From a virus: a DNA stretch of 64,000 bases. The notes below the pieces were generated by a model. It saw only the letters and a list, made by a program, of their open reading frames with translations, searched no databases and was not told the origin of the DNA. Below, in pieces: positions 49,886 to 59,968 of this stretch. Location of the stretch: the IMG/VR virus record IMGVR_UViG_3300005329_000012, positions 25,544-89,543 of that record; one strand, written 5' to 3'. The position numbers and the translations under genes are program-made. Numbering within the stretch: position 1 is the stretch's first letter; each line of letters begins with the position of its first letter.

Positions 49886-49959
49886 CGCGGGGTAGAGCAG
49901 TTTGGTAGCTCGCCAGGCTCATAACCTGGAGGTCGTGGGTTCAAATCCCACTCCCGCTA
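49886..49959 (+). tRNA. tRNA-fMet(CAT)
   Basis: Cloverleaf, C1:U72 mismatch, loop CTCATAA. Confidence 0.92.
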
Positions 49960-50154
49960 CTTGAGGTACAAGTTCGAGCCCGCCACGGCGGGCAGCCCCG
50001 CAAGGGGCGATTGAGCCCGGGCCGAGCCCTCCCGGGACCTAAAAAGGGGCTTCTGGCTTCGCTGTTACCAGGAACCGAACAGCGTGGTGGAGGCTGGCGT
50101 ACCGCGTCAGGCCCTCGCACGGGGAGGCACGGCGTCAACTGGTGCCTCAGAATA

Positions 50155-50229
50155 CAGGGTGTAGCTCAGTCTGGTGAGAGTACTCCGTTGGGGACGGAGA
50201 GGTCGTGGGTTCAAGTCCCACCACCCTGA
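50155..50229 (+). tRNA. tRNA-Pro(GGG)
   Basis: Cloverleaf, loop TTGGGGA. Confidence 0.92.
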
Positions 50230-50279
50230 TGGCGACCGCGGCCGGTAACGGCGGGGACGGCTCGGAGAGACGAGCGCAT

Positions 50280-50353
50280 CAGCGTGTAGCTCAGTCTGGC
50301 AGAGTCGCCGCTTCGGGAGCGGATGGTCGCAGGTTCGAATCCTGCCACGCTGA
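50280..50353 (+). tRNA. tRNA-Pro(CGG)
   Basis: Cloverleaf, loop TTCGGGA. Confidence 0.9.
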
Positions 50354-50412
50354 CTGGCCCCTTCGGGGGCCGTGTCCGACCGGGCGCGGGAACACCTTCC
50401 CCGGTCGGCCCT

Positions 50413-50786
50413 GGGCCAGCCATGGCTTTCGACAGTCGAGCATGGACGGCGAGATCGCAGCGGGTCGCGGCCTACCGCGCCTAGCCCCGGATCGGGCAAA
50501 CCCAAATGCGAACGACAACGATCGCATCGAGGTCGCGGACACGTTCCCGGCAGAGTGGCTCGCCGCTCCCGCCGAGTCGGCCCTCGTCGCTGCCTGACGA
50601 GCACCAACAGGTAGACCGCACCCGCCGGTAGCGGGTGACGCCCCGGAGAGACGGGTCGCCGCAGGGGTGAACGGCGCTAAACCGATGGACCCCCGAGCCC
50701 GGGGTACGCTGGCCGGGCACACAAGCTGCTAGAAGGTCTTGACGGAACCACCCGGCTGGACGCGGGTTCGACTCCCGCCTGGTCCA
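50413..50786 (+). ncRNA. ssrA: tmRNA; tag reading frame 50508-50597
   Basis: Acceptor GGGCCAG/CTGGTCC-A with G3:U70, GGCTTTCGAC 5' motif, T-arm GCGGG-TTCGACT-CCCGC, tag ANDN...ALVAA-TGA. Confidence 0.93.
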
Positions 50787-50927
50787 CTCCACTGCACCAA
50801 GCGTTGCCCCGACGGCGACGGGTCCCGGCTCTGCGGAGCACACTGCAACCGGGCCGCGGACGTGCTCACCGCGCGGTCGCTGATGAACGACGGAGGCCCG
50901 ACCAGTTCGGGGCTGAGGTCTCCACCT

Positions 50928-51001
50928 ATGCCGCTAGCTCAATCAGGCAGAGCAGGTGTCTCCAAAGCACAAGGTTCCGGGTTCGATTCCTGGGCGGCAT
51001 G
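50928..51001 (+). tRNA. tRNA-Trp(CCA)
   Basis: Cloverleaf, loop CTCCAAA. Confidence 0.88.
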
Positions 51002-51015
51002 CCTCGCACCACCCT

Positions 51016-51088
51016 GTCCGGTTCGTCTAGTGGACCAGGATGCCGCCCTCTCACGGCGGAGACACGGGATCGTAGCCCGTACTGGACA
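51016..51088 (+). tRNA. tRNA-Glu(CTC)
   Basis: Cloverleaf, loop CTCTCAC; atypical T-loop ATCGTAG. Confidence 0.85.
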
Positions 51089-51125
51089 TAGGGCACGCTC
51101 GGCCGCGAGGCCGCCGTGCCCGCAT

Positions 51126-51198
51126 TGGCGGGTAGCTCAGTCGGTAGAGCGGCTCCCTGTTAAGGAGAAGGTCGTGGGATCGAAGCCCACCCTGCCAG
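51126..51198 (+). tRNA. tRNA-Asn(GTT)
   Basis: Cloverleaf, loop CTGTTAA. Confidence 0.9.
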
Positions 51199-51246
51199 CT
51201 CACAGCGCCCTAGCAGGGGGCGCGGACACAAGTACCCTGCGCGCGT

Positions 51247-51319
51247 AGCCCGTTCGACTAGCGGACAGGTCGCCGCTCTTTCAAGGCGGTAGGCGCGGGT
51301 TCGAATCCCGCACGGGCCA
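51247..51319 (+). tRNA. tRNA-Glu(TTC)
   Basis: Cloverleaf, loop CTTTCAA; 1:72 mismatch. Confidence 0.85.
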
Positions 51320-51352
51320 TTGCCAGGCAGCACAGCAAGACCGCAGCGCCAC

Positions 51353-51423
51353 TGGGAGGTCGTCTAATGGTAGGACGCCGGGTTCTGGCCCCGGAAACTG
51401 AGGTTCGACCCCTTGCCACCCAG
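51353..51423 (+). tRNA. tRNA-Gln(CTG)
   Basis: Cloverleaf, loop TTCTGGC. Confidence 0.85.
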
Positions 51424-51435
51424 CTCGCAACACCC

Positions 51436-51508
51436 GCCTCGCTAGCTCAGTCGGTAGAGCAGGGGACTTTTAATCCCAAGGTCCTAGGTTCGAACCCTAG
51501 GCGGGGCA
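51436..51508 (+). tRNA. tRNA-Lys(TTT)
   Basis: Cloverleaf, loop CTTTTAA. Confidence 0.92.
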
Positions 51509-51660
51509 CTGCAACAACTTCTCGACGTGGCGTCCCGCGAGGGGCGCTGGCGAAGCCGTCCGACGCATCCCTGGATCGCGACCAGGCTCTCAGTGGCGGG
51601 GGAACGCGGGTTCGATTCCCGCAACGCTCCTAACCGGGCGGGCCTGGCACGTCGGGGCGC

Positions 51661-51733
51661 GGACCGCTAGCTCAGTCGGCAGAGCAGGGGCCTCTTAAGC
51701 CCAAGGTCCAGGGTTCGATCCCCTGGCGGTCCA
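51661..51733 (+). tRNA. tRNA-Lys(CTT)
   Basis: Cloverleaf, loop CTCTTAA. Confidence 0.92.
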
Positions 51734-51821
51734 CTCAGGGAGGCGCGACGGAGTTCGGCCTGACGGCCGCCGTTGGGAAGCCCCGGCCCCGGTGCCGGGT
51801 GGCCTACCCCTCCCTGTACAC

Positions 51822-51903
51822 GCTCCTGTGGCGGAACAGGTAGACGCGCTGGTTTCAGGAACCAGTGTCTTCGGACGTGGGGGTTCGGATCCCTCCGGGA
51901 GCA
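51822..51903 (+). tRNA. tRNA-Leu(CAG)
   Basis: Type II cloverleaf, loop TTCAGGA. Confidence 0.9.
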
Positions 51904-51974
51904 CTTGACAACCCCGGCTTCGGCCGGAGACGCGCGGGGCGGCGTGGGCCTTCGGGCCGGGACAGCCCCAACAT

Positions 51975-52058
51975 GCGCTCGTGGTGGAATCGGTAGACAC
52001 GTCGGCTTGAGGAGCCGGTGGCCGCGAGGTCGTGGGGGTTCAACTCCCTCCGGGCGCA
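51975..52058 (+). tRNA. tRNA-Leu(GAG)
   Basis: Type II cloverleaf, loop TTGAGGA. Confidence 0.9.
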
Positions 52059-52157
52059 CTAGGCTGGCCGTCAGACGGTGAGAACGCGGCCCGCTCAGGG
52101 AAGGCACCTACCCGGGCCGACTGCTCACCTCTTTGCCCGGACGTAGCCTTCCCGCAC

Positions 52158-52230
52158 GGCGACGTAACTCAGTCGGTAGAGTGTCTGTCTGAAAAGCAGA
52201 AGGTCGGCGGTTCAAGTCCGCCCGTCGCCA
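52158..52230 (+). tRNA. tRNA-Phe(GAA)
   Basis: Cloverleaf, loop CTGAAAA. Confidence 0.92.
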
Positions 52231-52372
52231 TCGAGAGAGGGAAACATCCCGGAAGCGGTAGTGTGTTGAGGCCGGGGCCGAACCGCCTGACGCTGGCGGG
52301 GGAATGGGAGCACCCGGGCGCACCCGGAGTCCCGGTTCGAGTCCGGGCCGCGAGACCCTCCCTCGGAACCGC

Positions 52373-52454
52373 GCCCGCCTGGCGGAACAGGTAGACGCCC
52401 CGGCTTCAAACACCGGCGCCACCAGGCGTTCGGGTTCGAGTCCCGAGGCGGGCA
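52373..52454 (+). tRNA. tRNA-Leu(CAA)
   Basis: Type II cloverleaf, loop TTCAAAC. Confidence 0.88.
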
Positions 52455-52469
52455 TAGCAAGACCAGCAT

Positions 52470-52542
52470 GGAGGACGTAGCTCAGTGGTAGAGTCGCGGG
52501 TTGTGGTCCCGTCGGTCGTGGGTTCGATCCCCACCGTCCTCC
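52470..52542 (+). tRNA. tRNA-His(GTG)
   Basis: G-1:C73, loop TTGTGGT. Confidence 0.9.
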
Positions 52543-52640
52543 CTCCCTGTGGCCCCGCATTGCCAAAGCAGAGGAACCACCGGCCCGTTACGCGGGGAAG
52601 CACCGGGCGCCGTCGGCCTGTGAACAGAACGGACGGACAC

Positions 52641-52714
52641 GTGGGAGTAGCTCAGTTCGGTAGAGTGTCGGCTTGCCAAGTCGAAGGTCGCGGGTTCGAT
52701 CCCCGTCTCCCACA
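52641..52714 (+). tRNA. tRNA-Gly(GCC)
   Basis: Cloverleaf, loop TTGCCAA. Confidence 0.9.
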
Positions 52715-52755
52715 CTGCCGCCCAGGCCCGGAAGGGAGCAAGCGGCCACAGCAGT
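52715..52755 (+). ncRNA. SRP RNA helix-8 (Ffh-binding) hairpin
   Basis: CCGCC-CAGG-CCC-GGAA-GGG-AGCA-AGCGG: conserved symmetric loop and GGAA tetraloop of SRP helix 8. Confidence 0.7.
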
Positions 52756-52847
52756 CCGCCGGGGGCACGCCGAGGCGCATGCGCCGAAGCAGCCCTAAGA
52801 CAGAGCCGCGTTCCGGTCGCGGCCTAATCCCTAAGCGGGCTGCACAC

Positions 52848-52921
52848 GCCACCGTAGCTCAGTCGGCAAGAGCGCCCGCCTTGTAAGCGGGAGGTCCGGG
52901 GCTCGACCCCCCGCGGTGGCT
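52848..52921 (+). tRNA. tRNA-Thr(TGT)
   Basis: Cloverleaf, loop CTTGTAA. Confidence 0.88.
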
Positions 52922-52930
52922 CTCGTACAC

Positions 52931-53003
52931 GCCCCGCTAGCTCAGCGGAAAGAGCGACGGGTTCCTAACCCGCAGGTCGCAGGTTCGATCCCTGCGCGGG
53001 GCA
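52931..53003 (+). tRNA. tRNA-Arg(CCT)
   Basis: Cloverleaf, loop TTCCTAA. Confidence 0.9.
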
Positions 53004-53138
53004 TCCACCGAGGCTGGGCGCGCGAGGTCCGTCGCCGGACGCGTCCGCTGCCGTAGTACCCTCTGACGACACGGGAGAGCGGCAGGCGCCTTCGGGCGCG
53101 TGAAAGGCTTAGCGGCCCGGTAGCCAACTCGGTGATTT

Positions 53139-53212
53139 GCGCTGGTAGCTCAGTCGGATAGAGCCACGGGCTTCTAACCCGTCGGTCGGGGGTTCGAGTC
53201 CCTCTCGGCGCA
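53139..53212 (+). tRNA. tRNA-Arg(TCT)
   Basis: Cloverleaf, loop CTTCTAA. Confidence 0.9.
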
Positions 53213-53311
53213 TCGTGGGTCCTCCAGGAGGGGTGACAGCGAGGACATCTGGCCGGGCATTCGTGGAGCCGCCCCTGCCCGGGAACAACTGGCGGCCTAG
53301 ACCCTCCACCC

Positions 53312-53385
53312 GCACGCATAGCTCAGTCTGGCAGAGCGACGCGCTTCCAACGCGTAGGTCAGGGGTTCGAGGCCCCTTGCGTGCT
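53312..53385 (+). tRNA. tRNA-Gly(TCC)
   Basis: Cloverleaf, loop CTTCCAA. Confidence 0.9.
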
Positions 53386-53392
53386 TCATCGC

Positions 53393-53466
53393 TGCTCCGT
53401 AGCTCAGTCAGGCAGAGCGTCCGGCTCATAACCGGCAGGTCGAGGGTTCGAGTCCCTCCGGAGCGA
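53393..53466 (+). tRNA. tRNA-Met(CAT), elongator (Ile2 not excluded)
   Basis: Cloverleaf, loop CTCATAA. Confidence 0.85.
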
Positions 53467-53669
53467 CTGGGGACAGCGGGGCGGACCGCCCGCCGGGAAC
53501 ACACTTCGCCGTGCACGGCGCAAGGCACGTCCTGGCAGCAGTGGCCACCGGACGGAATCCGATCGACCGCGCCCTACCTAACTGCTGGCCACCGGCCGAT
53601 GGTCATTCCGCCGTTCGACTCGGCGAGCCGGGGAGGGTGGCTCCCTCCAGCCAGGCCAGCAGGTCTTTC

Positions 53670-53743
53670 GCCCGTGTAGCTCAGTCAGGCAGAGCACTTC
53701 CCTCGTAAGGAAGGGGTCCGGGGTTCAACTCCCCGCGCGGGCT
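53670..53743 (+). tRNA. tRNA-Thr(CGT)
   Basis: Cloverleaf, loop CTCGTAA. Confidence 0.9.
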
Positions 53744-53909
53744 CTTGGGTGCCGGTTCGTCGATCGTGGGCCGGTCCCCAGCAGCTTCATGAAGAACCGC
53801 GCGATGCATCGCGCATAGGAGGGCCGGGGTGCGAATCCCTGTAGAGAAAACGGTTGCCTCCGAACCGGGAGCGGTTGACGGGCCAGATCACCCGCGGCGC
53901 TCCCGACCC

Positions 53910-53984
53910 GCCGACGTAGCTCAGTCAGGCCAGAGCACTTCCTCGGTAAGGAAGGGGTCCAGGGTTCAAGTCCCTGCGTCGGCT
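53910..53984 (+). tRNA. tRNA-Thr(GGT)
   Basis: Cloverleaf, loop TCGGTAA (C33). Confidence 0.88.
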
Positions 53985-53990
53985 TCGCAC

Positions 53991-54063
53991 GGCCCGTTAG
54001 CTCAGTGGACAGAGTGTCCGGCTTCGAACCGGATGGTCGGGGGTTCGACTCCCTCACGGGCCG
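53991..54063 (+). tRNA. tRNA-Arg(TCG)
   Basis: Cloverleaf, loop CTTCGAA. Confidence 0.9.
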
Positions 54064-54170
54064 CTTCCGTGGAACGTCGGGTAGGTCGCCACTGGCGGCC
54101 AGGCCCGGCGCGATCGGTTCACGCGGGAGGCAGCGCGTGAGAGGGGTGGAAGTCCCCACTGCCACAACAC

Positions 54171-54245
54171 GGACCGTTAGCTCAGCATGGTCAGAGTAGC
54201 GCCCTGTCGAGGCGATGGTCACGGGTTCGAATCCCGTACGGTCCG
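54171..54245 (+). tRNA. tRNA-Asp(GTC)
   Basis: Cloverleaf, loop CTGTCGA, G73. Confidence 0.9.
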
Positions 54246-54342
54246 CTCCGTTTCAGAACGCACGAAAACGGGTAGAAACAACCCACGGGGCCGTCTTCGG
54301 GCGCCCCGTCCAAACCAAGCACCAGGGGGCAAGACAGCAACG

Positions 54343-55044
54343 ATGGCAGACCAGAAGTACTACGACTCGACGGACACCGAGCGGACCAACCCGCTCAGCC
54401 GTCAGCAGGCGGCGCAGGTCCAGATGGGCGGACACGCGGTGGTCGACGAAGACGGCCAGCCCGCGACACTCTACGCGTACGACGTGCTCCACGGCCGCGA
54501 GGCCGTGACCGGCGAGGTATCGGCGGACCAGCTCGACCGCGAGGCCCTCAAGGCCAACGGCGGCGAGGCCCGCGACGCCTGGCAGGAGCAGGCCGACGAG
54601 AACGCCGCCGACGGCGGCGACGAGCCCGAGCGGCTCACGATCCCGCAGCTCAAGGAGCAGATCGCGGACCTCAGCGACGAGGACCTCGACAGCTACGCGA
54701 ACGACGACCGCAAGGGCGCCCAGGAGGCCGCGAAGGCCGAGCAGGCGCGCCGCGCGGAGGCCGCCGAGGCCGACGAGAAGAACGAGGACGAGAACAGCAC
54801 GGCCAGCGGCGCCGAGGGCGTCGAGGCCGCCGTCCAGGGCGTCCTGGAGTCGCAGCAGGCCGCCAGCAACCGGCCGCCCGACTCCGACGAGGCGCAGGCG
54901 CTTCTCGCGCAGGCCACCGTCGGCGGCGACAGCGGCGACGCGACCGTGGAGGGCGTCGTCGAGGACGACGGCTCCCCGGGCGACAAGGAGTTCGACCCGG
55001 ACGCCGCGGCGGACGAGAAGGACTCCGAGGACGAGGACAAGTAG
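54343..55044 (+). CDS. Highly acidic hypothetical protein inside the tRNA array
   Basis: ATG 54343 (MADQKYYDST...), D/E-rich, normal codon bias, followed by hairpin 55050-55071. Confidence 0.8.
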   Translation: MADQKYYDSTDTERTNPLSRQQAAQVQMGGHAVVDEDGQPATLYAYDVLHGREAVTGEVSADQLDREALKANGGEARDAWQEQADENAADGGDEPERLTIPQLKEQIADLSDEDLDSYANDDRKGAQEAAKAEQARRAEAAEADEKNEDENSTASGAEGVEAAVQGVLESQQAASNRPPDSDEAQALLAQATVGGDSGDATVEGVVEDDGSPGDKEFDPDAAADEKDSEDEDK

Positions 55045-55075
55045 CACACGAGGCCCCCGCGAGGGGGCCTCACCA

Positions 55076-55148
55076 GGGCGGCTAGCTCAGTAGGGAGAGC
55101 GCCGGTTTCACACGCCGTAGGTCGCAGGTTCGAGCCCTGCGCCGCCCA
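55076..55148 (+). tRNA. tRNA-Val(CAC)
   Basis: Cloverleaf, loop TTCACAC. Confidence 0.9.
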
Positions 55149-55439
55149 TCGACCGTAGGACCGTTGGCCTAAAAGCAGCCACCGGCTAAGGAGTGGCGAG
55201 GCAGGGATCGGGGACCGGAACCAGAAGGGTCGATCCGATCTTCAAAGATTCACCGGGCCTGGTAAGGGAGAAGCCCGGGCATCTGCCGCGAAGGCCCGAC
55301 GCAAGGAGAAGCGTCGGGGAGAAGCCCGGAACGGAAGCGAGCCGCATACCCTGCGCGGCGAGCCGACGAGGACTGACCGTCCTACCGGGATGCCGACTTC
55401 GCACGTGAGCCTTTGGCGTAGCAGCACACCTTCGGTCGA
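55149..55439 (+). ncRNA. Candidate novel ncRNA mimicking the 23S rRNA GTPase-associated centre (H43-H44, uL11 site) with ~220-nt insertion
   Basis: Terminal stem TCGACCGTAGG/CCTTCGGTCGA; GGACCGTTGGCCTAAAAGCAGCCACCGGCTAAGGAGTG ... GCGTAGCAGCACAC aligns with 23S nt ~1055-1104. Confidence 0.7.
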
Positions 55440-55445
55440 ACCCAT

Positions 55446-55680
55446 TCGAAGGGGAAGACACGCGCGGCGCGGTGCTTCGAGACGCGTCGAGGAAAGTCAG
55501 GCCACCTGCCGCCCGGGGACGGGACGGCAAACGCGCGGCGACCGAGCGGGAGGGCTCCGGCCCGTCTCACCGCCAGGACCGGCGGGGTGCAACCCCAAGC
55601 GCGGCGCCCAGACCGGGCGTCCAGGTAGGGGGCACAGATGGATGCGTGTCCTAGACAGAAGCCTGCTTACGAACCTTCGA
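55446..55680 (+). ncRNA. rnpB: Minimal RNase P RNA
   Basis: P1 TCGAAGG/CCTTCGA, P2 GACACGC/GCGTGTC, CR-I GAGGAAAGTCAGG, CR-IV AGATGGATG, CR-V ACAGAAGCCTGCTTA; P4 pairing has a compensatory change. Confidence 0.88.
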
Positions 55681-55729
55681 GACACGGTCCCTAACCGCTT
55701 AGGCTAACAACCGCGGGGCGGGGCCTCCA

Positions 55730-55803
55730 GACCGCGTAGCTCAGTCGGGACGAGCGCCACGTTGACATCGTGGAGGTCGGTGGTTCGAGCCCACCCGTGG
55801 TCA
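55730..55803 (+). tRNA. tRNA-Val(GAC)
   Basis: Cloverleaf, loop TTGACAT. Confidence 0.9.
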
Positions 55804-55809
55804 CTGCAA

Positions 55810-55882
55810 GTCCCAGTAGCTCAGAGGACAGAGTGCAGCCCTGCGAAGGCTGAGGTCGGCGGTTCGATCCCGCCCTGGGACG
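55810..55882 (+). tRNA. tRNA-Arg(GCG)
   Basis: Cloverleaf, loop CTGCGAA. Confidence 0.9.
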
Positions 55883-55897
55883 CTACACTTTGGGGCA

Positions 55898-56100
55898 TGG
55901 CGAAGAAGATCAACGCGAAGAAGGAGAAGGCCCTCCGCAACGAGGCGTACGCGAAGCAGTTCCGCAAGCGGACGCCCGGCCGGAAGGACCGGGACAAGAA
56001 GCGGCTCGGCGGCCCCTGGGGCAACTGGTGCCGCATCAAGGGGCACCCGCAGAACTGCGGTTGCGTGTACGGCGTAGGGACTGGTAGCTCAGCTGGTTAG
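55898..56100 (+). CDS. Small basic protein with C-x4-H-x3-C-x-C tail
   Basis: TACACT -10 just upstream of ATG; MAKKINAKKEKALRNEAYAKQFRKR...; 3' end overlaps tRNA-Ile. Confidence 0.6.
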
Positions 56101-56151
56101 AGTGGCGCTCTGATAAGGCGCAGGTCGGTGGTTCGAGTCCACCCCAGTCCA
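56078..56151 (+). tRNA. tRNA-Ile(GAT)
   Basis: Cloverleaf, loop CTGATAA. Confidence 0.92.
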
Positions 56152-56252
56152 TCGGAAGGTAGCTCAGACCCCATGCGAGCGCAATGGCGTGTCGCGGAGA
56201 GCTGGCCCTAACGGGTCGAGACGGCGCGGTGGGAGGCGCCCCTTCCGTACAG

Positions 56253-56323
56253 GGCGACGTGGCCGAGCGGTTAGGCGGTTGGCTGCAACCCTTCACACAC
56301 AGGTTCGAGTCCTGTCGTCGCCT
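56253..56323 (+). tRNA. tRNA-Cys(GCA)
   Basis: Cloverleaf, loop CTGCAAC, U73; two U-U pairs in anticodon stem. Confidence 0.8.
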
Positions 56324-56434
56324 CTAGGTGGCCCCTACGCGGCCACCAGTGCCCCACTCTGGCCCACCGAGGGCCGGGGCGGGGAGTTCCATTGCTTCGC
56401 GAGGTCGGCGCCAGAGGCGCCCACTCTCGTGCTC

Positions 56435-56507
56435 GGGCCGGTAGCTCAGTCGGGAGAGCGACGCACTCGCACTGCGTAGGTCAAGGGTTCGACTCCCTTC
56501 CGGTCCA
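56435..56507 (+). tRNA. tRNA-Ala(CGC)
   Basis: G3:U70, loop CTCGCAC. Confidence 0.92.
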
Positions 56508-56599
56508 CTGCTCCGTCGGGGTACCCGGGTGGTTCCCGGGACTGTCTGAGGAGCGCCCTCTCGGCAGAGGCCGCGTAACCGCGCGGTGTCGGGAGGCCC

Positions 56600-56672
56600 G
56601 GGGCGTTAGCTCAGCTGGGAGAGCATTTGGCTGGCAGCCAAAAGGTCGAGGGTTCAAGTCCCTCACGCTCCA
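56600..56672 (+). tRNA. tRNA-Ala(GGC)
   Basis: G3:U70, loop CTGGCAG. Confidence 0.92.
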
Positions 56673-56818
56673 TGGGTGATCCGGGTTCGAGTCCCGGGCG
56701 CACCTGCCCCGATAGCAGGCCCCGCGAAGGGCCGCAAGCCATGGCTGGCGGGCAAACGTCGGCCCGGTTCGCGCCGGTCCCGGCGGGGAGCGTTGGTGCA
56801 ACGGCAGCACACCCTCAC
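56673..56818 (+). ncRNA. Circularly permuted tRNA-like RNA (T-arm first, D-arm last, no anticodon loop)
   Basis: T-arm 56681-97, 3' acceptor strand 56698-704, then 5' acceptor strand 56787-93 and D-arm GTGC-AACGGCA-GCAC 56796-810. Confidence 0.6.
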
Positions 56819-56906
56819 GGAAGGGCTAGCCGACAGTCGGCGACGGCACCCGGTTGCTAACCGGACGAGGCGCAAGCCCTTGAGGGATCATCCCCCTCCC
56901 CTTCCG
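56819..56906 (+). tRNA. tRNA-Ser(GCT), atypical
   Basis: Type II cloverleaf, loop TTGCTAA, T-loop ATCATCC. Confidence 0.78.
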
Positions 56907-56957
56907 CTCGTTTCGACCGCCCCTACCCCGGGTACAATCACGGGGGAGGAGGCAAAC

Positions 56958-57128
56958 ATGGGAGTGATCGGAGTCATCCTGCGCGTGGTCGCGTTCGTGC
57001 TGTTCGTCGTGGCGGGGGTCAACGAGACCCTGCTCAACCAGCCGCCCGCCGACCTCGTCGCATTCGGCCTGGCCGCCTGGGTCCTCGCCGTCCTGCTGGA
57101 CGGCGTCGACGTCGGCCGCCTCGGCTGA
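56958..57128 (+). CDS. Small two-TM membrane protein
   Basis: TACAAT -10 at 56933, GGAGGAGG SD, two hydrophobic helices. Confidence 0.75.
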   Translation: MGVIGVILRVVAFVLFVVAGVNETLLNQPPADLVAFGLAAWVLAVLLDGVDVGRLG

Positions 57129-57159
57129 GACACGGACTGGCCGCCCCTAGCGGCCACAC

Positions 57160-57248
57160 GGAAGGGCAAGCCGACGGTTGGCTGACGGCACCGGATTCGA
57201 AACCCGGCGAGGCGAGAGCCCTTGTGAGTTCGATCCTCACTCCTTCCG
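57160..57248 (+). tRNA. tRNA-Ser(CGA)
   Basis: Type II cloverleaf, loop TTCGAAA. Confidence 0.82.
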
Positions 57249-57253
57249 CTCAC

Positions 57254-57342
57254 GGAGAGGCAACCCGACGGCTGGCGACGGGACCCGCTTGGAAAGCGGA
57301 CGAGCCTTTGCGGCCTTGCGGGATCGTTCCCCGCCTTCTCCG
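57254..57342 (+). tRNA. tRNA-Ser(GGA)
   Basis: Type II cloverleaf, loop TTGGAAA. Confidence 0.82.
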
Positions 57343-57356
57343 CTCGCGTAAGGGGT

Positions 57357-57470
57357 GTGAGGATCATCCCGACGCAGAAGGGTCCCGACCGGGACCTGGC
57401 AATCCTCCTCTGGACCACGGTCGCCGTCCTGGCGACGGTGATCTTCGTCGCGTACCACGCATTCCACTGA
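57357..57470 (+). CDS. 37-aa single-TM peptide
   Basis: GTG after CGTAAGGGGT motif; MRIIPTQKGPDRDLAILLWTTVAVLATVIFVAYHAFH; stop abuts tRNA-Tyr. Confidence 0.5.
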   Translation: MRIIPTQKGPDRDLAILLWTTVAVLATVIFVAYHAFH

Positions 57471-57550
57471 GCCGACGCTGGGGCTGGGACCCCGACCTGG
57501 CTGTAAACCAGGCGTCTCGTACTAGGCAGGTTCGATTCCTGACGGCGGCA
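57471..57550 (+). tRNA. tRNA-Tyr(GTA), divergent
   Basis: CCTGG-CTGTAAA-CCAGG anticodon arm, T-arm, acceptor with one mismatch. Confidence 0.75.
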
Positions 57551-57913: not shown

Positions 57914-58254
57914 TGGGGATGTTCGACTGGGTCCAGTGCGACGCGCCCCTGCCTGACGGCTGGGAGCCGCACCGCGGCCTCTACAGCGACTTCAGCGACG
58001 GCGGCTTCCAGACCAAGAGCTTCGAGTGCCTCCTGCTCACGTTTACGATCACGGCCGAGGGCCGCCTGACCGTCCAAGGCTACGGTGGCGCGCGCGAGGA
58101 GTACGAGCCCGAGGGCGTGCCCTACTCCGGGACGTTCGTCTTCTACGGGACGGATGACCACACGGACGGCGGACGCTGGCACGAGTACGCCGCCGAGTTC
58201 CAGGGCGGCCAGCTCCAGGGGATCGTGGCGCATGACCGCAGTGGCGGCGCCTGA
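57913..58254 (+). CDS. Conserved phage hypothetical protein (MGMFD...FQTK...)
   Basis: TGATG coupling; MGMFDWVQC...FQTKSFEC...WHEYAAEF. Confidence 0.7.
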   Translation: MGMFDWVQCDAPLPDGWEPHRGLYSDFSDGGFQTKSFECLLLTFTITAEGRLTVQGYGGAREEYEPEGVPYSGTFVFYGTDDHTDGGRWHEYAAEFQGGQLQGIVAHDRSGGA

Positions 58255-59968
58255 CGTCCGCGTCGAGAGCGGCCTCGAAGGGCGCCTCGACCGCGCCGGG
58301 AACCCGCTCAGGCTGACCAACGGCTTCCTGCCCTTCCAGTGGGAGGGCGTCCAGCACATCGCCGCCATGGACCGCGCGGCGTACATGCGCTGGGACACCG
58401 GCACCGGCAAGACCCTGGCGGCCGAGGCCGCCATCCTCCTCAAGCGCCAGGAGGGCTTCCAGCTGACGCTCTACGTCGTCCGGCCGAACCACCTGGAGGG
58501 CGCCCGGCGCAAGCTGCGGCAGCACACCGGCATCGAGGCCCACATGCTCACCGGCACGGCGAAGCAGCGCCAGAGGGTCTTCCTGGAGGTCGACGACGCC
58601 GTGTACGAGCGCGAGCAGCCGGTCCTCATCTTCAACCCCGAGAAGCTCAGCACCGACACGGAGAACTTCAAGGAGCTGATCGAGGGCCGCTCCGTCCTGC
58701 TGATCCTGGACGAGGCCCAGAAGCGGTTCGGCAACCGGGCCACCAAGCTGTACCGGAACGCCTGCGAGGTCCTGTACACGAGCAAGACCGACCGCGGCAT
58801 CCACTACCCGCGCGGCGGCTACGAGCGGCCGAGCCACATGTTCGCCGTGGCCCTGAGCGCGACGCCGATCACGAAGTCGCCGGACAACCTGTTCAACACC
58901 GTCCGGCTCATCTACCCCGGCCTGCTGGGCTCGGTCCAGGACTTCAACAACAAGTACGCCGGGCCGCGCAACCGCTGGAACGAGGTCGTCTACTGGAAGA
59001 ACCTCGACCTCCTCGCCGAGGAGGTCGCGCCGATCGTCCACCAGGCGAGCAAGAGCGACCCGGAGATCGCGGCCCAGTTCCCAGAGGTCATGGAGGAGAC
59101 GGCCTTCTGCGCCATGGACGACGCGACGTCGCGCCTTTACGAGAGGCTCCAGCGCGAGTACAGCAACATCGGCGCCGCCTCCCTGCTGTCCTACGACGAG
59201 GTCCTCGCCGCGATCAACTGCCTCCAGCAGCTCGTCTCCAACCCGAAGGCCGTCCTGCACTCCGCGATGGAGCGCGACGCCTACGAGCTGGAGCTGGAGC
59301 GGTTCCTGGAGGAGCCGCGGAAGGCGGCCGAGATACGCGAGTTCGAGAAGAAGCACAAGCGAGGCTCGGACGTGGCGCTCAAGCTGCGCGCGCTCGTGGA
59401 CAACGACTTCGCCTTCACGGATGGCAACAAGAAGGGCGAGGCGACCAACGGGAAGCTCGTCGTCCTCCGGGAGTACCTGGAGGAGCACGACGGCAAGGCG
59501 GTCGTGTTCTGCTCCGAGGTCGTGATGCAGGAGATCATCAGCCAGTGGCTCACCACCTGGGGCGTCCGGCACGTCCTCTACCGCGGCGGCATGACGCCCA
59601 AGAGCGGCCAGTGGGCGATCGACCACTTTCGCACCGACCCCGACTGCAAGGTCTTCCTCTCGACGGACGCGGGCCAGGACTCGATCGACCTCCCGGAGGC
59701 CAGCCTGACCATCCACTACGACTACCCGATGGACTGGTCGTGGTCGGCGTGGCTCCAGCGCGGCAATCGGCAGCACCGCATCGACTCGGAGCAGGACTCC
59801 GTGCGCGTCGTGACGCTCACGGTCCCCGGCACGGTCGAGGACCGGAAGGCCGAGGTCGTCGCCAAGAAGAAGGGCTACCACGACGCGATCTTCGACGGCG
59901 CCGAGGCGCCCGAGGAGGAGATGGAGCCGACGGACTACCTGTACGTGCTGACGGGGCAGGAAAGCTAG
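58232..59968 (+). CDS. SNF2-family (SF2) helicase/ATPase
   Basis: DTGTGKT, ILDEAQ, LSATP, QRGNRQHRI motifs. Confidence 0.9.
   Translation: MTAVAAPDVRVESGLEGRLDRAGNPLRLTNGFLPFQWEGVQHIAAMDRAAYMRWDTGTGKTLAAEAAILLKRQEGFQLTLYVVRPNHLEGARRKLRQHTGIEAHMLTGTAKQRQRVFLEVDDAVYEREQPVLIFNPEKLSTDTENFKELIEGRSVLLILDEAQKRFGNRATKLYRNACEVLYTSKTDRGIHYPRGGYERPSHMFAVALSATPITKSPDNLFNTVRLIYPGLLGSVQDFNNKYAGPRNRWNEVVYWKNLDLLAEEVAPIVHQASKSDPEIAAQFPEVMEETAFCAMDDATSRLYERLQREYSNIGAASLLSYDEVLAAINCLQQLVSNPKAVLHSAMERDAYELELERFLEEPRKAAEIREFEKKHKRGSDVALKLRALVDNDFAFTDGNKKGEATNGKLVVLREYLEEHDGKAVVFCSEVVMQEIISQWLTTWGVRHVLYRGGMTPKSGQWAIDHFRTDPDCKVFLSTDAGQDSIDLPEASLTIHYDYPMDWSWSAWLQRGNRQHRIDSEQDSVRVVTLTVPGTVEDRKAEVVAKKKGYHDAIFDGAEAPEEEMEPTDYLYVLTGQES

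Follow-up and report, generated by a model that had tools for sequence, protein, structure and literature searches.

A reduced homolog of bacterial type A RNase P RNA within the tRNA array of a phage contig

Introduction

The locus described here raises the question of whether a phage that carries a long array of tRNA genes also carries an RNA of the kind that processes them. RNase P RNA is the ribozyme that trims new tRNAs, and its specificity domain (S-domain), with the conserved regions CR-II and CR-III, reads the tRNA elbow. To our knowledge, this near-universal ribozyme is regarded as strictly cellular. We analysed a 64,000-nt stretch (hereafter, the window), which forms the final 64 kb of a viral contig of 89.5 kb from IMG/VR with a GC content of ~69% and an estimated completeness of ~56%. 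The contig encodes a tail sheath, a baseplate wedge protein, and a DnaE-like DNA polymerase, as in a contractile-tailed phage, and it is present in rhizosphere and soil metagenomes among public runs. An initial annotation of the window, made by eye, proposed a phage-encoded RNase P RNA with an intact catalytic domain and a degenerate S-domain.

Results

Match to the bacterial type A family

The covariance model of the bacterial type A RNase P RNA (RF00010) gave a global match at 55445-55685 on the + strand, which covered model positions 1-367 with 46.4 bits. The E value was 3e-13 in a search of 581 nt, 4e-12 in 8 kb, and 1e-14 in the whole contig, where this match was the sole one. The gathering score of the family is 100 bits, and permissive thresholds were needed to obtain the match; at gathering thresholds, the Rfam search over the tRNA array reported only tRNAs and no RNase P RNA. 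A search with the bacterial model, which the initial annotation had named as a check, was thus significant (E 1e-12 to 1e-14) but missed the gathering threshold. When all Rfam families were compared using cmscan, RF00010 was the best member of the RNase P clan, and one lower-scoring, unnamed clan match was suppressed. These results indicate that the element is a full-length, sub-threshold match to bacterial type A RNase P RNA and a phage-borne homolog of it. We refer to it as the mini-RPR.

55445..55681, + strand: whole mini RNase P RNA, 237 nt, 70% GC (RF00010 match and pair-checked hand structure)

The RF00010 alignment keeps P1, P2, P3, CR-I, P5, J5/15, P15-P17, CR-IV, and CR-V. P18 is deleted (0 nt for 24 model positions), as the initial annotation had noted, and so is the S-domain core (~121 positions), where 63 nt stand as an insertion. 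Two other approaches to the element were set aside. Single-sequence folding was uninformative at 70% GC, the fold energy being no better than that of shuffles (z = -0.98). In regards to a protein-coding reading, the six ORFs that overlap 55186-55707 gave no credible Pfam match, and a 71-aa ORF lacked the codon-position GC pattern of the phage. A blastn search of the element against cultured phages gave no match.

Structure of the catalytic domain

The structure was written by hand, and each pair was confirmed by a script. The helices and conserved regions, all on the + strand, are as follows.

55445-52 / 55674-81, +: P1, 8 bp; all 8 pairs changed on both sides across 26 homologs
55457-63 / 55644-50, +: P2, GACACGC/GCGUGUC; 6 of 7 pairs compensatory
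55465-71 / 55483-89, +: P3 hairpin (55465..55489), 7 bp with an 11-nt loop; 100% of cells paired in the homolog alignment
55489-98, +: CR-I (GAGGAAAGUC), from the RF00010 alignment
55494-501 / 55662-68, +: P4 pseudoknot, AAG-(U55497 bulge)-CAGG with CCUGCUU; script-verified
55503-07 / 55585-89, +: P5, CACCU/GGGUG, followed by CAA; script-verified
55589-55592, +: J5/15, GCAA; kept in 23-25 of 26 copies
55593-96 / 55628-31, +: P15, CCCC/GGGG; CCUC/GAGG in the relative L016
55603-09 / 55615-22, +: P16/17 hairpin; script-verified
55624-27, +: internal loop L15 with GGUA; G-G-U invariant wherever the region aligns
55636-44, +: CR-IV (AGAUGGAUG); A26, G25, A26, U25 of 26 conserved, outside every search pattern
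55655-69, +: CR-V (ACAGAAGCCUGCUUA), including the P4 3' strand; RF00010 alignment and pair check

P1, P2, P3, P4, P5, P15, the P16 hairpin, CR-IV, and CR-V had all been read by eye in the initial annotation, and each is found at its place with every pair verified. The helices differ in sequence among the relatives in other viral contigs: P2 is GACAAGC/GCUUGUC in L016 and CGCAUAC/GUAUGCG in L038, and P5 is CAUC/GAUG in L038. P4 covaries at one pair, which is A-U in 11, C-G in 10, and G-C in 4 of the 26 RNAs, with P4 standing outside the covariance model. No P6 is evident in the mini-RPR. A P6-type pairing between the loop of hairpin H1 and L17 is plausible in L016 (GAGA/UCUC) and L038 (GGAG/CUCC); it was not found in the window RNA, and we do not claim it. 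The predicted catalytic domain is complete in architecture, with P1-P5, P15-P17, CR-I, CR-IV, and CR-V.

Structure of the S-region

The strands of P5 enclose 77 nt, close to the ~80 nt estimated by eye, in place of an S-domain core of roughly 120 nt.

55508..55584, +: S-domain remnant, 77 nt (RNAalifold on the clade and covariation)
55509-27, +: hairpin H1 with a GGGA loop, directly after P5 (RNAalifold and by-eye comparison of the clade)
55532-38 / 55579-84, +: P7-like helix continuing P5, CGC-g-CGG/CCG-GCG in the window and CGU-ga-CGA/UCG-GCG in L016
55546-49 / 55570-73, +: inner helix GCGG/CCGC, covarying in three forms (GCGG/CCGC, GUGG/CCAC, and GAGG/CCUC)
55550-52, +: GAG, fixed in module copies
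55552-63, +: hairpin H2 (RNAalifold on the clade)
55564-69, +: J strand GUCUCA; a 6-8-nt strand ending in A in the clade

The P7-like helix also covaries (CGA/UCG vs CGG/CCG). The inner part forms a small unit, which we call the mini S-module, composed of a helix, GAG, a hairpin, CGN5A, and the closing strand of the helix; in the window (55546-73), it reads GCGG, GAG, hairpin, (C)CGUCUCA, CCGC. The module lies just inside P5 in at least 19 short RNAs, including a copy in Achromobacter anxifer and copies in planctomycete bins (Gemmataceae, Planctomycetia), and its helix covaries while GAG, CG, and the last A remain fixed. These features lead us to a different view of the S-region from that of the initial annotation: since its helices covary among relatives and the module is conserved in at least 19 phage or array copies, the predicted S-region is reduced, not degenerate. 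The absence of CR-II and CR-III agrees with the first reading, since those model parts are unmatched in the RF00010 alignment; no canonical CR-II or CR-III was found in the window RNA, and the mini S-module could not be equated with them. A T-loop within the module was considered, as the J strand ends in U-N-N-N-A in many copies, and was rejected because position 1 varies within the clade.

The tRNA array and its flanks

49886..57550, all +: array of 36 tRNA genes and a tmRNA-like gene (Rfam tRNA and ARAGORN)
55730..55804, +: tRNA-Val(GAC), 48 nt downstream of the mini-RPR P1
51015-51089, 51126-51199, 52848-52922, 56819-56907, and 57254-57343, +: array tRNAs with odd T-loops, by T-loop position 54

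Within the array (49886-57550), we found no promoter-like site and no + strand terminator, which is consistent with a single long precursor that needs cutting. The 5' cleavage of tRNA-Val(GAC) would release the 3' side of the mini-RPR. CCA is encoded in none of the 36 array tRNA genes; the discriminator is followed by CU in 21 of the 36, as counted from the tRNA table. Neither a CCA-adding enzyme (PF01743) nor rnpA (PF00825) was matched in the 89.5-kb contig, which is ~56% complete; the initial annotation had likewise seen no rnpA in the window.

The 5' leaders of the tRNAs are conserved, with C at -3 in 29 of 36 (background 0.33) and a consensus of R-C-A-C before the cleavage site. In other arrays with a mini-RPR (L028, L035, and L038), C(-3)A(-2) is the commonest combination; the leader CCAU is invariant in L028 and L035, and UCAU in L038. 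The T-loop carries a base other than U54 in 6 of the 36 tRNAs, in line with the non-canonical T-loops that had been noticed by eye, and is canonical in the other 30. The tRNAs for Glu(CUC), Ser(GCU), and Ser(GGA) have A54 with U58, which looks like an exchange of the two bases of the usual T54-A58 pair, and the T-loops of tRNA-Asn and Thr(UGU) have A54 and C54, respectively. Because 30 of 36 tRNAs are canonical and 6 are non-U54, the earlier suggestion that the mini-RPR tolerates odd T-loops is a conjecture.

Several further features of the array were observed. ARAGORN called a tmRNA at 50413-50787 with an unusually long tag, ANDNDRIEVADTFPAEWLAAPAESALVAA; the Rfam match to it was confined to the tRNA-like 3' end (50732-50779) and, at 24 bits, lay below threshold. 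A 91-nt tRNA-Ala(CGC) at 51541-51631 was called by ARAGORN and not reported by the Rfam tRNA model; it may be interrupted or aberrant. A 285-aa ORF (54187-55044) within the array has the phage coding signature (GC3 0.89) and no Pfam match, and many array-adjacent ORFs are without a family match.

The polymerase is only ~28% identical to the DnaE-like enzymes of actinobacteriophages. RF00010 gave no match in Gordonia phages Pupper and Skog or in Mycobacterium phage Cane17, which by their polymerases are the nearest cultured relatives; two of these three genomes are 152 and 160 kb. The mini-RPR is therefore dispensable for at least those relatives and would be optional equipment. A SNF2-type helicase (58085-59968), used as a protein marker for relatives, retrieved nothing in viral contigs.

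RNA-library contigs

55226..55429, strand not given by the contigs: non-coding stretch just upstream of the mini-RPR (RNA-library contigs)

Three metatranscriptome runs were considered. Two gave contigs, which cover 55226-55429 only, and the third gave none. No contig lay over 55445-55685 in the three runs; contigs of this kind cannot show absence. The two RNA contigs (X3, 204 nt, and X5, 154 nt) come from two rhizosphere studies, show 0 differences, and both end at 55429, which is 16 nt before P1. The covered stretch lies between tRNA-Val(CAC) and the mini-RPR; its GC3 is 0.68 vs 0.98 in real genes, and it matches no Rfam family. It contains hairpins whose loops are AAGGAGAA and GGUAAGGGAGAA, and a 60-nt part of it has three copies of RGGAGAAGC. 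The stretch may be a stable phage RNA of no known family.

Homologs in viral contigs

We searched viral contigs with a spacing pattern that consisted of CR-I, then 110-200 nt, then CR-V, and obtained 34 further loci (GC 0.35-0.63) in contigs of 10-389 kb. Eight of these loci were scanned; all are embedded in tRNA arrays, on the same strand as the tRNAs, and give global RF00010 matches of 28-105 bits over 209-247 nt; the size range of the class of array mini-RPRs is 190-280 nt. Short RNAs of this kind thus recur in many phages, in the same context wherever checked. Four close relatives of the window RNA were found, among them L016 (in a 150-kb viral contig), L036, and L038, and two extra clade-specific DNA patterns added no members. 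Within this close clade, compensatory changes were found in P1, P2, P3, P5, and P15. MAFFT alignments of the clade misplaced P1-P3 and P16, and the covariance-model alignment was used instead.

A covariance model (R1) was built from the window sequence alone and the hand structure. It retrieved 25 other loci at full length and, within the window, only the mini-RPR itself. On the resulting alignment of 26 RNAs, which is fitted to the model structure and therefore somewhat inflates the pairing, standard pairs occupy 96.0% of cells, compared with 64.2% in shuffles and 33-39% when the partners were slid; the P4 pseudoknot stands outside the model and yet covaries. Two-sided changes occur in 51 of 66 pairs, and the covariation score is 0.437, compared with 0.097 for shuffles and ~0.04-0.05 for slid partners. 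The conservation of CR-I and CR-V among the copies is partly circular, because both are in the search pattern; CR-IV, the GCAA of J5/15, and the G-G-U of L15 lie outside it and are near-invariant. These results indicate selection on both the structure and the core motifs.

A variant from a soil DNA run (X2), compared with window positions 55579-55945, has an identical 3' half of the RNA, a different S-region, and 16 changes in the next tRNA. Its loose end has the sequence ...GUCUAACCUCCUAU ahead of 55579, and evolution of the element appears to be mosaic. Another viral locus (L009:352-587) shows a different reduction: it keeps P7-P11, CR-II/CR-III, and P18, while P15-P17 (48 model positions) are replaced by 4 nt, and it scores 105 bits, above the threshold. 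By their predicted structures, phage lineages have trimmed different parts of the RNase P RNA.

Short RNase P RNAs in cellular genomes

In species-representative genomes, the spacing pattern was found at 60 places of two kinds, inside tRNA arrays and without an array. The array-embedded copies occur in several MAG bins and in the cultured bacterium A. anxifer LMG 26857 (L090 / L104, contig 5, ~8-16 kb), where a phage-like region packs 32 tRNA genes into 8 kb. On its flanks are genes of a kind typical for large phages, which code for a GyrB-like subunit, an RNA ligase, and a thymidylate synthase. The short copy in A. anxifer (contig 5, 14076-14299) is 224 nt in length with 82.7 bits, its S-domain is replaced by ~45 nt, and P18 is absent; blastn against cultured phages gave no match. 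Since A. anxifer also has a native RNase P RNA on another contig (405 nt, 202 bits), the array copy is clearly accessory.

The short copies without an array were found in genomes of Elusimicrobia, CPR, and DPANN. For both L102 (Elusimicrobia) and L103 (Dojkabacteria), the short RNA is the sole RF00010 match in the genome, and the Elusimicrobia RNA keeps canonical CR-II and CR-III. Two side observations concern other genomes. Pseudomonas sp. NPDC096917 (L101, contig 20, 9169-9417) has a 249-nt RNA with 187 bits as the sole RF00010 match in its 5.2-Mb isolate genome, in which P10-P14 (103 model positions) are replaced by 3 nt and P1-P9 and P15-P18 are intact; it would be odd as a sole RNase P RNA for such a genome and could be accessory if the assembly lacks the native gene. 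In many archaeal DPANN MAGs, including Iainarchaeum (L045, L046, L065, L071, L074, L078, L087, and L096), CR-I and CR-V are separated by only ~140-170 nt, which implies unusually short RNase P RNAs. This set includes a complete 1.05-Mb Iainarchaeum chromosome, in which RF00010 gave no match at E ≤ 0.001.

Discussion

Proposed function

The mini-RPR retains the parts that we take to form the active site and to contact the protein and, on the tRNA side, the acceptor stem, leader, and 3' end. According to PMC4919922, the bacterial catalytic domain (C-domain) alone cleaves pre-tRNA with or without RnpA, at a lower rate and with weaker affinity, and the RNase P RNA that Pyrobaculum uses has almost no S-domain (Lai et al. 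2010, as cited there). Because of the retained parts, this C-domain biochemistry, and the Pyrobaculum RNA, the best reading is an accessory ribozyme that uses a host protein. We therefore regard the mini-RPR as probably an accessory phage RNase P RNA of the bacterial type A lineage, which most likely acts with host RnpA and cleaves the leaders of phage pre-tRNAs.

The mini-RPR would be made within a long polycistronic transcript of the tRNA array and would be freed by the processing of neighbouring RNAs. The freed RNA would fold into the standard catalytic domain (P1-P5 and P15-P17, with the bulged U in the active-site helix P4), would most likely bind the host RnpA protein, and would cleave the 5' leaders of the phage's own 36 pre-tRNAs, which would provide extra tRNA-maturation capacity during infection. 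With the elbow-reading S-domain apparently replaced by a small conserved module, substrate choice would rest mainly on contacts with the acceptor stem and leader, plus the pairing of the L15 GGU with the tRNA 3' end. That pairing would form once CCA has been added; as CCA is absent from all 36 tRNA genes and the contig gave no match to a CCA-adding enzyme, either the host would complete the 3' end first or the GGU would serve another contact.

Alternative explanations

A specialised enzyme, which would be catalytic but have an unrecognised phage protein as its partner or non-canonical array RNAs as its main substrates, is unlikely in our estimate. Its targets might be the tmRNA precursor, the abundant upstream RNA, or the tRNAs with odd T-loops, and it might read a leader signature instead of the elbow. 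The strikingly conserved leaders, including the C(-3)A(-2) of the three other arrays, would suit such an enzyme, but this motif is not tied to the RNA and could equally reflect a preference of the host enzyme or the duplication history of the array. Similarly, the six non-U54 tRNAs, three of them with the A54/U58 swap, are offered as special substrates, whereas the other 30 are ordinary. The mini S-module without a known counterpart, the RNA contigs that stop 16 nt before P1, and the many array-adjacent ORFs without a family match also fit; the regions that bind RnpA in bacterial holoenzymes are, however, all kept. A bolder form of this idea, which we likewise hold to be unlikely, is that the mini S-module and the leader C at -3 together constitute a new mode of substrate selection, by which an RNase P private to the phage would preferentially mature CCA-less phage pre-tRNAs without elbow reading. 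If this were true, a shutdown of, or an attack on, host RNase P or host tRNA pools would leave phage translation still supplied.

It is also unlikely that the RNA is a decoy or regulator, which would bind host RnpA or pre-tRNAs without useful catalysis and thereby divert the protein or titrate a factor acting on RNase P. The half that is retained is the protein-binding half and the half that is lost is that of substrate affinity, and RNAs consisting of the C-domain only bind substrate poorly according to PMC4919922. A decoy would have no need of the L15 GGU that binds the tRNA 3' end, yet the GGU is invariant where aligned, and the position on the tRNA strand inside tRNA arrays fits a processing role. 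The near-invariant CR-IV and P4 pairs also speak against a decoy but discriminate weakly, because the P4 strands are in the search pattern and both regions bind RnpA in known holoenzymes. An inert relic, that is, a decaying fragment of a captured host rnpB, might account for the sub-threshold score, the large deletions, and a fold energy no better than that of shuffles, but it is very improbable given the compensatory changes in every helix among distant phages spanning GC 0.35-0.70, the same core kept by different lineages, and a soil variant that retains an identical 3' half next to a tRNA differing at 16 places.

Comparison with known RNase P RNAs

The mini-RPR, read as an accessory RNase P RNA, shares P1-P5, P15-P17, the bulged U of P4, CR-I, CR-IV, CR-V, J5/15, and the GGU of L15 with bacterial type A RNAs (RF00010), such as E. 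coli M1 RNA (rnpB) and the T. maritima P RNA. Type A RNAs are typically 340-420 nt in length, as given in PMC4919922, whereas the mini-RPR is 237 nt, with P7-P14 and their CR-II/CR-III replaced by 77 nt, no P18, and no evident P6. It also differs in being virus-encoded, an extra copy in a tRNA array, and at 46 bits against a 100-bit threshold. From its predicted structure, this viral RNA, embedded in an array, derives from bacterial type A RNase P RNA by minimisation of the S-domain.

The minimal RNA of Pyrobaculum and other Thermoproteaceae (Lai et al. 2010, as cited in PMC4919922) likewise keeps the catalytic domain with nearly the whole S-domain gone, and it shows that a natural RNA without most of the S-domain can serve as a real enzyme. 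The Pyrobaculum RNA is archaeal, is the only RNase P RNA of the cell, and works with several archaeal proteins. The mini-RPR, unlike it, belongs to the bacterial type A lineage, keeps L15 and P15-P17, and has its own mini S-module. C-domain-only bacterial RNAs that were engineered in the laboratory (references 75-77 of PMC4919922) retain the same parts and cleave pre-tRNA with or without RnpA, at reduced rate and affinity; those are constructs, whereas the mini-RPR occurs in nature as a conserved gene and carries a small module besides.

Diverged or reduced RNase P RNAs have been reported for CPR bacteria (Lui et al. 2021, PMC8172020). Together with the compact Elusimicrobia and Dojkabacteria RNAs found here, they are short type A derivatives near or below the Rfam thresholds, without P12-P14 and/or P18. 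The compact cellular RNAs are the sole match in their own genomes, and the Elusimicrobia one has canonical CR-II and CR-III, unlike the mini-RPR. In regards to other translation-related phage RNAs (tRNA arrays and tmRNA), the mini-RPR shares the locus, the strand, and the logic of importing parts of host translation. For the megaphage genomes in PMC8172020, only tRNAs and a tmRNA were reported, and our full-text literature searches found no description of a phage-encoded RNase P RNA.

Implications

Standard annotation misses the mini-RPRs because they score below the Rfam threshold, and they would thus be overlooked in many large phage genomes. With the accessory copy in the cultured A. anxifer LMG 26857, the idea is open to bench tests. 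As natural minimal bacterial-type RNase P RNAs of ~200-240 nt, the mini-RPRs would be useful for dissecting the need for the S-domain. They would also explain how phages with dozens of tRNA genes handle the processing load, and, with a conserved viral RNase P RNA, the translation parts known from phages would come to include a catalytic RNA.
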